A stretch of 59,932 nucleotides of DNA from Rhizobium sp. Q54 (GCA_945871805.1 CAMBXE010000003.1:1-59932); one strand, 5' to 3'; positions 2,717 to 11,908 are shown, numbered from the stretch's first letter. Notes: a model not told the origin generated them from the letters alone. Numbers and translations: made by a program.

Positions 2717-4494
2717 TGTTAATAAAGCTCTCTGACTACATCGCTAAAGAGTTGGTCAATCACGGCGTTCGCCACGTCTTCATGATTTCTGGCGGTGGTG
2801 CAATGCATCTCAACGACTCATTCGGTAAGCACGAAAATCTCGAATATGTTTGTAATCATCACGAGCAAGCAGCGGCGATTGCGGCGGAAGGATATGCGCG
2901 CTGCAATCAAAAATTAGCAGTGGTGAATGTGACCACGGGACCGGGCGGCATTAATACTCTCAACGGTGTTTTTGGTCAGTGGACAGATTCAATTCCAGCG
3001 CTCTACATCTCTGGTCAGGTGAAATATGAAACCACTCTCGATTCCTGTCCAAACTCAAAATTACGTCAGCTCGGCGATCAAGAAGTCGACATTATCAGCA
3101 TGGTGAAGGTGATCACAAAATATGCTGAAATGGTGAAGGATCCGAAAGACATTAAAAAAATTTTACAGAAGGCGATTCATCTCGCGACCAGCGGCAGACC
3201 TGGCCCGACCTGGATCGACATCCCGATCAATATTCAAGGTGCGATGATCGATGAAGATGAGCTTGAGTCTTACGAAGCAGAAATTTCTGTGCCGCAAAAA
3301 ATAGAAATGCAGAAAATTATTGAATTATTGAGCCAGGCTAAACGCCCAGTAATCGTGGCTGGACACGGCATTAGAATTGCCGATCAGATCGAAAATTTTC
3401 ACCAACTAATTAACCAAACAAACATCCCATTTGTTGCAACGCTTAATGGCTTTGACATCTCTCCGTCAGCTCATCCGCTCTGTATCGGTCGTATTGGAAC
3501 TATTGGTCAAAGGGCCGGAAATTTTGCCCTGCAAAATGCTGACCTCGTTCTCTGTTTAGGTACGCGAAACAACATTCGCCAAGTCAGTTACAACTGGGAA
3601 ATGTATGCGCGCAAAGCGATAAAAATTATTGTTGATATTGACGAAGCTGAGTTGCGTAAGCCGACGATTAAAGCGGATATTGCCATCTGTGCCGACCTAA
3701 AATATTTTCTGCCGCAGCTCAAAGCAGAAGCAAAAATCTCCGCAAAACCAGATTGGATAAAATGGTGCCAAGCCAGGAAAGACAAGTATTCGCCAGCGAA
3801 TAATCCTGAATACACAAAATCTTCTGGCCTAATTAATCCTTACGAATTCATCCAAGTTTTAACTAATTCTGCGAAAGAGGGTGACGCAATTGTTACCGCC
3901 AATGGCACTGCTTGCGTGAGTTTATTTCAAGCTGGTGCGGTGAAAAAAGATCAGAGAATTATTTGGAATTCTGGAAATGCTTCAATGGGTTACGATCTTC
4001 CCGCCGCAATCGGCGCCTGCTTCGCTCGAGATAAAAAAGATGTAATCTGCGTCGCTGGTGACGGCAGCGTAATGATGAATTTACAAGAATTGCAGACGAT
4101 CAAACATTACAATTTGCCGATCAAAATTTTTGTGCTGAACAATAATGGCTACTCTTCGATTCGCCAAACTCAGAGAAATTTTTTCGGTGAAAAATTAGTT
4201 GCTTGCAGTTCGACCTCAGGAGTCTCAACCCCAGATTTCGCTAAGATCGCCGCCGCTTTCGAAATGGCTTCAGCGAAAATTGAAAAGGGAGATGATTTAC
4301 AAAAATCCGTTGCCGCAGTGCTCGCACATCAAGGCCCAATTATTTGCGAAGTAATGCTCGACCACGACTACATCTTCCAACCAAAACTCTCTTCCGAAAA
4401 ACTCCCCGATGGCCGGATTATTTCCAAACCACTCGAAGACATGTTCCCCTTCCTCGATCGCGCAGAGTTTGAGTCGAATATTATCAAAGATTAA
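2716..4494 (+). CDS. Thiamine-diphosphate-dependent enzyme (acetolactate-synthase-like, probably a YerE-type sugar carboligase)
   Basis: HHEQAAAIAAEGY, VTTGPGG, MGYDLPAAIGA, GDGS...NNNGY motifs; lies in a sugar-biosynthesis cluster. Confidence 0.8.
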   Translation: MLIKLSDYIAKELVNHGVRHVFMISGGGAMHLNDSFGKHENLEYVCNHHEQAAAIAAEGYARCNQKLAVVNVTTGPGGINTLNGVFGQWTDSIPALYISGQVKYETTLDSCPNSKLRQLGDQEVDIISMVKVITKYAEMVKDPKDIKKILQKAIHLATSGRPGPTWIDIPINIQGAMIDEDELESYEAEISVPQKIEMQKIIELLSQAKRPVIVAGHGIRIADQIENFHQLINQTNIPFVATLNGFDISPSAHPLCIGRIGTIGQRAGNFALQNADLVLCLGTRNNIRQVSYNWEMYARKAIKIIVDIDEAELRKPTIKADIAICADLKYFLPQLKAEAKISAKPDWIKWCQARKDKYSPANNPEYTKSSGLINPYEFIQVLTNSAKEGDAIVTANGTACVSLFQAGAVKKDQRIIWNSGNASMGYDLPAAIGACFARDKKDVICVAGDGSVMMNLQELQTIKHYNLPIKIFVLNNNGYSSIRQTQRNFFGEKLVACSSTSGVSTPDFAKIAAAFEMASAKIEKGDDLQKSVAAVLAHQGPIICEVMLDHDYIFQPKLSSEKLPDGRIISKPLEDMFPFLDRAEFESNIIKD

Positions 4495-8178: not shown

Positions 8179-9102
8179 TTAGGCGACTTTAATTCCCCAT
8201 TTTTTTCCGAGATATTTTTCGATCTGAACTCTTTTTGCGGTGGGGATGCGTTTGCTGTAAACGATAATTTCTCCAATGTAGCCGCTGAAAGAGCCGTATA
8301 TTCCCGAGCAAAAACTTACCGAAGGAAAGACAGAAGCTTTTTGGCTGGTTAGGCCGGTTACAACTGAAGTGCCGTTAAGAAAAATTGTCGGAGTTTTGTT
8401 GTTGTAATCGAGCGTAATTACCGAGGCTGCATTCAATGCGTTCGAACTGTAAACCGCTAAAGACGACATGTAGGCGCCACTGTGTTCGTAAACAGAAATG
8501 CCGTTAGTACCAAGAGAAATTCCGGCGCCAGCGATTTCGTCTCTGCCGTATTGAATGCTGCCTTGCAGAGCTCCGAGAATATATTTCTGCCCAGATACTC
8601 CGGTGGTTGAGGAGTTACTTTGCGCGTCGATTTCGTGAGTAGCGGTAGGGCGAGCAACTAGAAAAATTGTAAAATTATTTGTAATGCCTGGCGCGGCAGT
8701 GGGGAAATAATCGCTGCCGGAAGTTACGGTAATTACGTCGTCAACTCCGTCGCATTGTAAGGCGGGTAATCCGTTGATTCCGCTGGTGACGTAAAATGGT
8801 CTTGTCGAGCCGCTGCTGGTCGCATTACTTTTGCTTGCTTGCTGGGGATTGGTGTCATTCCAAATAGCTACCAAAGATTGGTCGTCAATACTACTAACAA
8901 ATCCCGCTTCCGAAGTTGCGTCTAACCACAGAGCAAGATCTTGAGTTCCATTTACGGGAGAACCTTGAGTCACCGATCTTGCTGCGGCTAATTTCATTTT
9001 GACGTAGAGGCTTTTGCCCTGCATTCCTGCGACAATAAGAATGCCAATCACGAGAATAACGATTGAAAGTTCAATGAGTGAAAAGGCGCGATTTAGTTTC
9101 AT
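8179..9102 (-). CDS. Prepilin-type N-terminal methylation protein with LamG/concanavalin-like C-terminal domain
   Basis: RAFSLIELSIVILVIGIL class III signal; LWLDA...W-D, GYIGEIIVY...IEKYLGKKWG. Confidence 0.75.
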   Translation of the reverse strand: MKLNRAFSLIELSIVILVIGILIVAGMQGKSLYVKMKLAAARSVTQGSPVNGTQDLALWLDATSEAGFVSSIDDQSLVAIWNDTNPQQASKSNATSSGSTRPFYVTSGINGLPALQCDGVDDVITVTSGSDYFPTAAPGITNNFTIFLVARPTATHEIDAQSNSSTTGVSGQKYILGALQGSIQYGRDEIAGAGISLGTNGISVYEHSGAYMSSLAVYSSNALNAASVITLDYNNKTPTIFLNGTSVVTGLTSQKASVFPSVSFCSGIYGSFSGYIGEIIVYSKRIPTAKRVQIEKYLGKKWGIKVA

Positions 9103-9104
9103 TT

Positions 9105-10193
9105 TTAGGAAATATTTTTAATGCGAAGAAGGTCGATTTCGTTTAGTAGAAATTTCCCCGGAAGGAGGATTTTCTTACCGTCAGTGACGAAAGAAACCGC
9201 AGTAGTATTTTGTTCGGATTCAGATGCAACTCGCTGAGAAAGTAAGGATTTTAACATTAAAATTTGCTCGCGTCTCGTAATCAAAATTTCGATTTCAGCG
9301 GGAATTTTTTTTGCTTGAGGAGCTGGTTGAATTACTTTTTGTTCAGGAGTTTTTGCTTTGTAACTCGACGAAGAATTTCCTCTAAAATTACGAATTGCTT
9401 GCTGCTTAATATCTTCAAATTCCTCTTTTGCCGCTTCGGTATTTTTCAAGAAATCTTCTAATTTTTTTACGCCCTGAATCAAAATTCTGATTCCGCCTTC
9501 ATCTCTGCGGATCAAGCATTCAAGCGCAACGGCGCTGCCGTCGACTAAAATGTCGCGCGAATTAGTAATTAGCGCTTCGTCGAAAACCATTGTCTCAAAA
9601 ATGCCGAAAGGATCAGAAATATTAATGTAGGCAAAACGTCCGCGCGCACTAGAGCGGTGCTTACTATTCGCGATTACGCCGGCCATTTTTACGAGCGCGC
9701 CATCTTTTAATTCGTCGCGTTCGAGCTTGTCGGAAAATATTACGCCACGCTTGCGCAGGTCGGAAATTACTACGTCGACAGGATGTTCATTTAAGAAAAA
9801 ACCGAAGGCTTCGAATTCTTTTTGTAAGCGCTCAGCTCGGTTCCAATCCTCTGTTTTCTTAAGTTGCGGCTTAGAATTAACTTCGGGCATTCCGCCAAAA
9901 AGACTCATTTGATTCGAAGAAGATTCTTCGTTTTGTTGCGCGGAATAGGCGGAAAGAGTTTCGAATGATTCGGCGATTTGTCGGCGATTTGTTTGCAATT
10001 TGTCAAAGGCACCAGCCTTCGCTAAAGCCTCAATTGATTTTTTATTTATTAGGCGGGGATTGATGCGTTTGGCAAAATCGTAAACATCTTTGAAGTCGCC
10101 ATTTTCTTTACGCTCAGAGGCGACAACTTCCATCGTGCCAAAGCCCACGGCCTTAATAGCACCTAAGCCAAAACGAATCGCGAGATTGCTCAT
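9105..10193 (-). CDS. dnaE: DNA polymerase III alpha subunit, C-terminal portion only (HhH, OB-fold, C-terminal domain)
   Basis: AIRFGLGAIKAVG, ERKENGDFKDVYDFAKR, ALAKAGAFD, EFEAFGFFLNEHP, OB-fold AGVI...FAYINISDPFG; no PHP or palm domain; ATG overlaps uppP stop (ATGA). Confidence 0.85.
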   Translation of the reverse strand: MSNLAIRFGLGAIKAVGFGTMEVVASERKENGDFKDVYDFAKRINPRLINKKSIEALAKAGAFDKLQTNRRQIAESFETLSAYSAQQNEESSSNQMSLFGGMPEVNSKPQLKKTEDWNRAERLQKEFEAFGFFLNEHPVDVVISDLRKRGVIFSDKLERDELKDGALVKMAGVIANSKHRSSARGRFAYINISDPFGIFETMVFDEALITNSRDILVDGSAVALECLIRRDEGGIRILIQGVKKLEDFLKNTEAAKEEFEDIKQQAIRNFRGNSSSSYKAKTPEQKVIQPAPQAKKIPAEIEILITRREQILMLKSLLSQRVASESEQNTTAVSFVTDGKKILLPGKFLLNEIDLLRIKNIS

Positions 10194-10981
10194 GTCAAAA
10201 AGATTAAGACTAAAATTCCGACGGCGATTCGATAAAATCCGAAGGGTACAAAATTATTTTTACTGACGAAATTGATGAACCATTTGATTACCAAAATTGC
10301 CGAGAAAAATGAGGCGAGCAGGCCAACAAAAATCATTTCAATATTTTCAAAATTGAGCTCGGCATAATTTTTGTAGAGGTCGTAAATGCTGGCGGCGGCG
10401 ATTGTCGGAATTGCCAAGAAGAAAGAAAATTCTGCGGCGATTTTGCGATTTAAGCCGAGCAATAATCCGCCAATGATTGTCGCGCCAGACCTTGAAACTC
10501 CGGGGATCATTGCCAGGCACTGAAATAATCCGACGTAAAAAGCGGTGAGAGGAGTAATGTTTTCGAGCTCTTCAACGCTCGATTTTTTAGGCTTGCGCTC
10601 AACCGCAATCATTACGATTCCGCCAAGAATTAGGGCGAAGGCAATTGTTAAGTTGTTGAAAAGAAATGATTTGATTAATCCGTGCAAAGCCACGCCAAGC
10701 AAGGCCGCAGGAAGGAAGGCTAAAGCTAAATTTAAAATGAATTTCTGCTGCGATTTTTCTTTGAAGTGAATCAGAAGATCGAAAATTTTACCGCGGTAAA
10801 TCACACAAATCGCCAAAATTGCGCCGAGCTGAATTACGACTTCAAAGAGATTATTTTTAATTGCGGTGAAGTCGACTAACTGGGAAGTTAGTAGTAAATG
10901 TGCGGTCGAAGAAACGGGAATGAACTCGGTCAAGCCTTCAACAATTCCAAGCAGAGCGGCCTTAAAAAAATCTAACATCAT
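10190..10981 (-). CDS. uppP: Undecaprenyl-diphosphate phosphatase
   Basis: GIVEGLTEFIPVSSTAHL, PGVSRSGATI, AAEFSFFLAIP. Confidence 0.97.
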   Translation of the reverse strand: MMLDFFKAALLGIVEGLTEFIPVSSTAHLLLTSQLVDFTAIKNNLFEVVIQLGAILAICVIYRGKIFDLLIHFKEKSQQKFILNLALAFLPAALLGVALHGLIKSFLFNNLTIAFALILGGIVMIAVERKPKKSSVEELENITPLTAFYVGLFQCLAMIPGVSRSGATIIGGLLLGLNRKIAAEFSFFLAIPTIAAASIYDLYKNYAELNFENIEMIFVGLLASFFSAILVIKWFINFVSKNNFVPFGFYRIAVGILVLIFLT

Positions 10982-10996
10982 TTGCTAATAAAGCTG

Positions 10997-11081
10997 TGGT
11001 ACCTCCGGCCCGACTCGAACGGGCACATCCTAGGGACAATAGATTTTGAGTCTATCGCGTCTACCATTCCGCCACGGAGGC
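10997..11081 (-). tRNA. tRNA-Leu(CAA)
   Basis: GCCTCCGTGGCGGAATGGTAGACGC...CT-CAA-AA loop, long variable arm, GTTCGAGTC, encoded CCA. Confidence 0.95.
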
Positions 11082-11141: not shown

Positions 11142-11277
11142 TCAGAGGTTATTTCAAGAGAGCCTTACCACTCAAAACCTCTGACCAGTCTAAAAGTAAA
11201 TTCCAAAAGTAAAAAACCTAAAAAGTAAAAATTTTGGGAGGGCGACTGTAGCAAGTGGGAGATTTAAAAGTCAAACC

Positions 11278-11908
11278 GCCACCCCGCATTCCCGAGTGTC
11301 ACTCCGCATTCCCGGCCATCACCTCGCATTCCCGATTGTTACCCCGCATTCTCGACTGTCACCCCGCATTCTCGACTGTCACCCCGCACTTGTTGCGGGG
11401 CCCATCTCGTCCTTGTCAAAGACTTGACTTTGAAATGGACCCCGCAACAAGTGCGGGGTGACAGCTCGGGGTTGATGAGGAGTGATACTCGGGAATTTGG
11501 GGTAACACTCGGGATTACCAGAGTAACACTCCGCATTACCGATTGTTACCCCACATTCCCGGCCATCACCTCGCATTCTCGACTGTCACCCCGCATTCTC
11601 GACTGTCACCCCGCATTCTCGACTGTCACCCCGCACTTGTTGCGGGGCCCATCTCGTCCTTGTCAAAGACTTGACTTTGAAATGGACCCCGCAACAAGTG
11701 CGGGGTGACAGCTCGGGGCTGATGAGGAGTGACAGTCAGGAATGAGTGGCAACACTCTGGATTACACAGGGCAACACTCGGGATTACAGGGCAACACTCG
11801 GGATTACAGGGCAACACTCGGGATTACAGGGCAACACTCGGGATTACAGAGTAACACTCGGGATTACAGAGTAACACTCGGGATTACAGAGTAACACTCG
11901 GGAATGCT
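11278..11908. repeat. Composite locus: two family-A REP doublets (247-bp period) flanked by oppositely oriented 20-bp tandem arrays
   Basis: REP arms 11378-11403, 11437-11462, 11625-11650, 11684-11709; left units ACCCCGCATTCTCGACTGTC; right units GGGCAACACTCGGGATTACA x4 and GAGTAACACTCGGGATTACA x2 plus a partial (11769-11908). Confidence 0.95.

Follow-up and report, generated by a model that had tools for sequence, protein, structure and literature searches.

[quoted passage not shown] In a DNA stretch of 59,932 nucleotides from Rhizobium sp. Q54 (GCA_945871805.1, CAMBXE010000003.1:1-59932; the whole stretch is referred to here as the window), a gene designated dnaE-C encodes only the C-terminal third of this subunit, raising the question of where the remainder of the polymerase is encoded and how the two parts might work together. 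A sequence-only reading of the window had offered two answers: a two-subunit, intein-free Pol III alpha, or an accessory module retained beside a full-length dnaE. Our analysis shows that the locus is the product of an ancient, single-origin, intein-free fission of the sole C-family polymerase gene of these genomes. The features on which this rests are collected in Table 1.

Table 1. Positions of the two dnaE pieces, the segments of dnaE-C, and the genes flanking dnaE-C (window coordinates unless a contig is named).
Feature	Position	Strand	Length or residues	Context and evidence
dnaE-C, C-terminal module of the DNA polymerase III alpha subunit as a gene of its own	9105..10193	(-)	362 aa	ORF, NF004226, AlphaFold/Foldseek
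Strand AIRFGLG and helical HhH/beta-binding-domain region	9918..10181	(-)	residues 5-92	HHH_6, modeled helices 10-92
QMSLF, putative internal beta-clamp-binding motif	9897..9911	(-)	residues 95-99	Conserved in 35 C parts
OB fold	9462..9698	(-)	residues 166-244	PF01336; five strands, pLDDT 85-94; Foldseek matches to SSB/RPA OB folds
C-terminal alpha/beta domain	9117..9296	(-)	residues 300-359	pLDDT 84-89; Foldseek matches to Taq alpha including 4IQJ
uppP (undecaprenyl-diphosphatase)	10190..10981	(-)		Directly upstream of dnaE-C; Pfam BacA, E 2.7e-82
tRNA-Leu(CAA)	10997-11081	(-)		Heads the tRNA-uppP-dnaE-C string; ARAGORN; Rfam tRNA, 55 bits
Pilin-like gene	8179..9102	(-)	307 aa	Start 2 nt past the dnaE-C stop; Pfam N_methyl E 5e-4, below cut-off
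dnaE-N	Contig C24, 6726..9260	(+)	844 aa	NF004226 1216 bits, positions 6-819

The dnaE-C open reading frame contains no internal stop across its 362 codons, and its product begins MSNLAIRFGLGAIKAVG. In the NCBIfam DnaE model NF004226, residues 5-305 correspond to positions 823-1124 of 1146, and Pfam places an HHH_6 domain at residues 5-72 (E 4e-21) and an OB fold (PF01336) at residues 168-244. The frame and both searches bear out the earlier description of an intact C-terminal third of DnaE; the statement that the frame starts exactly at the HhH motif was slightly off, as translation begins four residues before a conserved beta-strand, AIRFG, that itself precedes the HhH helices, while the content from HhH to C-terminus is as described. 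In an AlphaFold model built from a 34-sequence alignment (mean pLDDT 79), helices span residues 10-92 and the OB fold spans residues 166-244, disorder is seen at 93-118 and in a linker at 269-294, and residues 300-359 form a folded domain; residues 1-9 are unstructured when the protein is modeled alone (pLDDT 43). The first disordered stretch, a loop of low confidence that separates the HhH region from the OB fold, holds QMSLF, which we take to be the Qxx(L/M)F clamp motif by reference to residues 920-924 of E. coli alpha. The best Foldseek matches of the model were Pol III alpha structures (3E0D, 2HPI, 4IQJ, 7PU7, and 5FKU), the alignments spanning 356-371 columns with the Taq and E. coli structures and 237 with M. 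tuberculosis 7PU7; 4IQJ is a complex of alpha, tau, and DNA. The equivalent C-terminal domain binds tau in E. coli and Taq alpha, and by this likeness the C-terminal domain of dnaE-C is a putative tau-binding domain. The HhH region, clamp motif, OB fold, and C-terminal domain of a DnaE1-type alpha subunit are all found on the window ORF.

A search of the source assembly, a metagenome bin of 1.40 Mb in 63 contigs (94.7% complete), with the DnaE model returned exactly two matches, covering positions 6-819 (N) and 810-1120 (C), and neither a full-length dnaE nor a second C-family polymerase was found in the genome by this search. The first match is the PHP-palm-fingers part for which the sequence-only reading had suggested searching the genome; it lies on contig C24 as the gene dnaE-N, which scores above the NF004226 family cut-off of 1002 bits. 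Pfam finds PHP, DNA_pol3_alpha, and DNA_pol3_finger domains in dnaE-N and nothing more, and the motifs PDFDIDF and KFDFLGL, which presumably hold the catalytic aspartates by comparison with E. coli alpha, can be read in its sequence. Its product ends in ILPPDLNSSEAYFSVELSSGLSAEENNKN before the stop. The gene is internal to C24, with genes on either side, and dnaE-C is likewise internal to its contig. Together, the two products make up a whole normal DnaE, without overlap or gap, over model positions 6-1120 of 1146; in place of one polypeptide of about 1150 aa there are chains of 844 aa and 362 aa encoded on different contigs, and the same holds in 11 genera. The gene pair is DnaE1 by descent, in two chains. 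The split-clade genomes listed contain no full-length dnaE, which refutes the reading of dnaE-C as an accessory module beside such a gene, and the two-subunit, intein-free polymerase is supported by the two matches, by the occurrence of the pair across the clade, and by strong purifying selection on the C part.

The split extends well beyond the window, as a search of related genomes confirmed. In a survey of the family covering 17 genera and 126 genomes, all 43 species genomes of the genus to which the window belongs contained only N-type (~5-820) and/or C-type (~818-1130) pieces, and the same two pieces were found in 10 further genera. The unsplit genera of the family (n=6) possess one-piece frames of 1205-1303 aa, plus one of 1383 aa (G104), and one-piece frames of 1128-1229 aa are found in 14 other families of the order. 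The pieces lie on different contigs or far apart; both are on one contig in G004 (75 kb) and in G115, where they are separated by ~1.05 Mb on a 1.23-Mb contig. Pieces with these same boundaries recur in about 97 species-level genomes, which were produced by many studies and assemblers, and 450 stand-alone homologues (360-400 aa) can be found in public protein data, one of them on a 1.09-Mb contig. In NCBI records the C-part homologues are annotated as "hypothetical protein", leaving the split currently invisible in NCBI annotation. The named C-part records come from lake, reservoir, and aquifer metagenome-assembled genomes (MAGs) deposited as Rickettsiales or Alphaproteobacteria bacterium, and they include UBA2645 and RIFCSPLOWO2_01_FULL_40_26, both placed in Candidatus Gamibacteraceae by Schön et al. 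The unsplit genera of the family, where their contigs matched named records, are represented by MAGs from animal guts. We assign the split clade to freshwater relatives of Rickettsia, the Gamibacteraceae; its genomes are all metagenome-assembled, none being from culture.

In a maximum-likelihood tree of the N region of DnaE (39 rows, with the split trait lying outside the alignment columns used), the 17 split rows, which represent eight genera, formed one clade (SH-aLRT 99), sister to a clade of seven unsplit family members (support 100). On this gene tree, a single change would explain the distribution of the split. A genome of another family, G025, has adjacent pieces and was considered as an in-place intermediate; this was rejected, as it is a single genome and groups with the unsplit outgroups on the tree. 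At its locus (L093, 6409-6451), a frame change inside LPPDINRS produces overlapping frames of 839 aa and 346 aa; this break probably has nothing to do with the split of the clade and reflects either a sequencing error or a lesion of recent date.

The gene neighborhood of dnaE-C is shared across most of the clade. In the window, the ATG of dnaE-C overlaps the uppP stop codon, as had been noted from the sequence alone: the plus strand reads TCAT at 10190-10193, so that the minus-strand ATG overlaps TGA. The claim that no DnaE sequence or intein domain lies upstream also held, uppP and tRNA-Leu(CAA) alone being present there. In almost all split-clade loci (L023-L064) uppP is directly upstream of dnaE-C. 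The distance from uppP stop to dnaE-C ATG was measured in 32 species and lies between -4 and +10 nt in 28 of them, and translation of dnaE-C is probably coupled to that of uppP. In one sub-lineage an insertion of 0.65-1.6 kb separates the two genes; exceptions are G115, which has no uppP upstream, and L049, where the N and C parts form a divergent pair ~170 bp apart. The uppP/dnaE-C junction is shared by about 30 independently assembled species, which answers the question of misassembly at this point. In G021 (L064/L092), the order is uppP-dnaE-C-dnaE-N with TAAATG between the C and N parts (a 0-nt gap); since C precedes N, read-through cannot fuse the pieces, which are translated as separate proteins. 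As G021 is nested within the genus on the N-region tree, and folE-skp(-xer-orf260) upstream of the N part is common to six split genera, the re-linked arrangements are secondary. The neighbors of the one-piece dnaE of the sister genera differ in every genus, and this comparison of neighborhoods favors neither the N-part nor the C-part locus as the ancestral one.

Several other elements were seen beside the two genes. Downstream of dnaE-C, a pilin-like gene with a prepilin-type N-terminal methylation motif (MKLNRAFSLIELSIVILVIGIL) prolongs the tRNA-Leu-uppP-dnaE-C string; only L023 and L024, the closest relatives, have it in the same place, and G105 carries three tandem paralogues of it beside its N part. 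REP-like arrays of dense palindromes lie beside both dnaE pieces (window ~11250-11900; L001 4936-5462), those of the window giving only sub-threshold matches to microRNA families in Rfam, i.e., hairpins. A tandem 7-codon repeat array, (HSKFVTP)n, adjoins the N part.

Both products are under undiminished purifying selection, and both genes are conserved in the absence of an intact copy. In close species pairs, dN/dS of dnaE-C is 0.06-0.11 (window versus L023: dN 0.056, dS 0.70, ratio 0.079), a sign of strong purifying selection with no relaxation. For the N part, five sequences were compared and no pair had unsaturated dS, and the ratio of C-to-N protein divergence was used instead. This ratio is 1.30 within the split clade, and likewise between the split clade and its sisters, versus 1.36-1.50 among unsplit genes; the detached tail has therefore undergone no rate acceleration. 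The combination that the sequence-only reading had set against a split polymerase, a full-length dnaE and relaxed selection on dnaE-C, was looked for on both counts and found on neither. Invariant positions in 34 species include I6, R7, F8, G9, L10, G11, K14, A15, V16, and G17, together with S93, Q95, M96, and F99 (SNQMSLF) and much of the OB fold; across 35 C parts SNQMSLF is nearly invariant, and AIRFGLGAIKAVG is nearly invariant as well. One of these 35 genes, L058 (MAG MiH-22jul19-124), has a single in-frame stop at ~3289-3291 after the clamp motif (QMNFFG-stop-LISE) in a frame that is otherwise intact and conserved; error, polymorphism, and recent damage are all possible origins of this stop.

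Alignment against solved structures defines the cut closely. The N part aligns up to residue 825 of E. coli alpha (~883 of Taq) and the C part from residue 831 (887 of Taq), placing the split between these residues, at loop 826-830. In an AlphaFold model of the split-site segment of an unsplit family member, a strand at 282-287 (YFSVER) is followed by a loop, a second strand at 303-308 (ELAVRY), and the HhH helices, with pLDDT of 62 for loop residues 291-300; on this model, the two strands flanking the cut would pair as a beta-hairpin. The split-site loop has 17-30 residues in unsplit family members (e.g., IDIVGEKDKKVKKYHEDKEL) versus 2-7 in outgroups, and a divergent C part of the split clade, L063, starts MTDKKLKVKKYDESGTEL-CIRFGLG, retaining part of the loop. 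The long loop of the unsplit sisters and the remnant in L063 therefore point to loop enlargement followed by fission inside the loop as the likely order of events, and after the cut the tail appears to have been captured by a housekeeping operon. No added docking element, such as a coiled coil or tag, is visible at the new ends of either piece, and so the affinity between them would rest on pre-existing contacts. In other species the N parts terminate in FSVEKI or EKIS before the stop, and some genome matches extend to model positions 834-842 through stops. A candidate HhH relic after the dnaE-N stop, where HMMER paired the tail LSSGLSAEEN with FGLSAVKN of Taq, was judged a chance resemblance and rejected because 11 other species end their N part in FSVEKI(S) and a stop, followed by unrelated sequence.

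Among the genes for replisome partners, dnaN, dnaQ, and dnaX are present in one copy each. DnaQ (229 aa) carries GGAQIGFGF at the site of the E. coli epsilon clamp motif, GGQTSMAF. DnaX (L108 1495-2772, contig C57) is about 426 aa in length with a short tail ending DELINDILRSFEGSKLI, and in it Pfam recognizes domains I-III only, tau domains IV/V not being recognizable; the DnaX partner site for the C-terminal domain of DnaE-C is therefore a putative one. The family as a whole has a DnaX of about 410-460 aa. A short DnaX was considered as a change accompanying the split and rejected for lack of correlation, as the frames measure 410-505 aa whether or not a genus has the split, being equally short in unsplit genera.

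We propose that the Pol III alpha subunit of this clade very probably consists of two polypeptides that assemble noncovalently. Such a complex is predicted from the severed hairpin and from the invariant N-terminal strand of DnaE-C, which is disordered when alone. One cut in the ancestor of the freshwater Gamibacteraceae clade would have fallen in the loop of the predicted beta-hairpin, at the boundary of the fingers and the beta-binding domain, with DnaE-C coming to be placed at the end of the tRNA-Leu-uppP unit. DnaE-N (844 aa), in which PDFDIDF and KFDFLGL are the catalytic motifs, would then contribute the PHP, palm, thumb, and fingers, and DnaE-C (362 aa) the HhH duplex-DNA-binding region, QMSLF, the OB fold, and the C-terminal domain that is tau-binding in model organisms. 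Under this proposal the hairpin strands (AYFSVE of the N part, AIRFGLG of the C part) would come together in trans, with the domains still meeting at their original interface. Shared partners, namely the clamp dimer, DNA, and the clamp loader, could help to keep the pieces together; the clamp dimer might bind DnaE-C through QMSLF and DnaE-N/epsilon through the clamp-motif-like GGAQIGFGF. Without DnaE-C, the catalytic piece would have no clamp or tau contact of its own.

An apparent fission could also be produced by misassembly, by a chimeric bin, or by decay of a pseudogenised dnaE with the true replicase left unassembled, and in favor of this is the nature of the source genome as a 63-contig metagenome bin of 94.7% completeness. 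Such an origin is scarcely credible given the identical pieces and boundaries in about 97 species-level genomes of diverse provenance, the contig-internal position of both genes and their presence on one contig in G004 and G115, the 450 public stand-alone homologues of 360-400 aa, with one on a 1.09-Mb contig, and dN/dS of ~0.08. In the split-intein DnaE of cyanobacteria, an N-intein of ~100-120 aa ends DnaE-N and a C-intein of ~35 aa starts DnaE-C, and the two pieces described here might similarly be joined after translation by a split intein or as transcripts by a trans-spliced intron. Joining has in its favor that a split intein is at work in the sole natural split of dnaE described to date (Timinskas et al. 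2014; PMC3919608). Pfam detected no Hint/intein domain, of N-intein or C-intein type, in dnaE-N or dnaE-C, and their non-DnaE ends, a head of 4 residues on DnaE-C and a tail of 14 residues on DnaE-N, are too short for a split intein. C-part heads in other species are 3-19 residues long, N parts end 2-14 residues past the conserved DnaE sequence, and the sequence of these extensions is unconserved. The split site also differs from that of cyanobacteria, as residue 5 of the window protein corresponds to position 111 of the 449-position cyanobacterial DnaE-C model NF005616. Joining at the RNA level was rejected on the basis of Rfam, which found no group I or group II intron near either gene, only the tRNA and sub-threshold hairpins of the REP arrays; the uppP coding sequence reaches the dnaE-C ATG. 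We consider joining to be as exceedingly improbable as an artefact, and both explanations are effectively excluded.

It is also conceivable, though improbable, that DnaE-N with epsilon, by way of the epsilon clamp contact, constitutes the whole replicase, leaving DnaE-C as an independent DNA-, clamp-, or tau-binding factor that is part of no defined complex. The pieces are unlinked in most genomes, the cut ends bear no new docking element, epsilon contains a clamp-motif-like sequence, and E. coli alpha truncated at residue 917 remains an active polymerase, each of which is consistent with an independent DnaE-C. In opposition to this, the IRFGLG strand is invariant yet unstructured alone, which points to a partner surface, and the relative rate of the C versus the N part is the same after the split. 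Two lineages have also re-linked the genes, as uppP-C-N with a 0-nt gap and as a divergent pair ~170 bp apart, which suggests co-expression, and DnaE-N alone, without a tau contact, would lack coupling to the clamp loader and helicase. The two-chain polymerase assembled noncovalently remains our preferred reading. As a tentative and rather doubtful extension of it, fission may make the replicase modular, with DnaE-C fixed on the clamp and clamp loader as a DNA-bound platform at which DnaE-N/epsilon docks and from which it leaves. If this were true, polymerase exchange, lagging-strand cycling, or subunit ratios would be controlled through two separate proteins, and the clamp dimer would form the bridge between DnaE-N and DnaE-C.

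A comparison with known polymerases places the gene pair among related arrangements. The one-chain DnaE1 alpha subunits (E. coli 5FKU/5FKV, Taq 2HPI/3E0D/4IQJ, and M. tuberculosis 7PU7) have the same domains, order, and motifs, whereas here the chain is cut and the two genes are usually far apart on the chromosome. In cyanobacteria such as Synechocystis and Nostoc, the replicative DnaE is likewise derived from two unlinked genes, but intein halves ligate their products into one chain; here there is no intein, and the cut is ~70-110 residues further C-terminal in the NF005616 alignment. Intein-free split polymerases are already known in family B, in Methanothermobacter thermautotrophicus and T4-like phages: the PolB halves of the former make up an active noncovalent complex, and some T4-like Aeromonas phages encode an intein-free split family-B polymerase in two genes, gp43A and gp43B. 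These likewise have a replicative polymerase encoded by two genes, the products of which work there as a noncovalent complex; they differ in belonging to family B rather than C, in occurring in archaea or phages, and in being cut inside the polymerase core, while the cut described here falls between the core and the clamp/tau-binding tail. Truncated DnaE3 and minor DnaE1 variants without the OB and/or C-terminal domain, described by Timinskas et al. (2014; PMC3919608), show that a C-family core can exist without the C-terminal modules. Those lineages, however, lost the modules or use PolC as their main replicase, unlike the present clade, in which the modules are kept as a separate, strongly conserved gene and no other C-family polymerase is present.

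The survey by Timinskas et al. (PMC3919608), which covered ~2000 genomes, reported no dnaE split other than those with inteins and took fragments of other kinds for frameshift errors. The literature searched, in which subscription journals were thinly covered, contained no account of a DnaE1 split without an intein, and two comparative papers on Gamibacteraceae make no mention of dnaE or polymerase III. Within the literature searched, a replicase that, as is probable here, works as two pieces without an intein has not previously been described for a cellular bacterium. The clade of ~11 genera amounts to a natural experiment in which the active site is located on one protein and the HhH region, clamp motif, OB fold, and putative tau-binding domain on another, which allows one to ask how far the processivity and coupling of the replisome need a covalent link between core and tail. 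It likewise allows one to ask at which points the chain tolerates cutting, an answer that would offer a design point for polymerase constructs of split or exchangeable type, and how fission of an essential gene can come about.

Some minor observations concern individual dnaE genes and N parts. In another family of the order, G032 (C1:534615-538448) has a dnaE frame of 1302 aa in which ~138 additional residues, in frame, separate model positions 579 and 581; they could represent a mini-intein or else a large fingers insert. In G112-G115 (genus g31), the N-part match falls into two in-frame blocks (model positions 6-425 and 417-819) with a gap of about 15 codons, suggesting that this lineage has an insert of its own in the palm/thumb region. 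In G119 (C26) and G121 (C47), of genus g33 (L090/L091), the frame past the N-part stop (FSIEKIS-stop) enters a long ORF. Interrupted by a single TAA, the frame totals ~2005 aa, and the next gene therefore abuts dnaE-N in frame.
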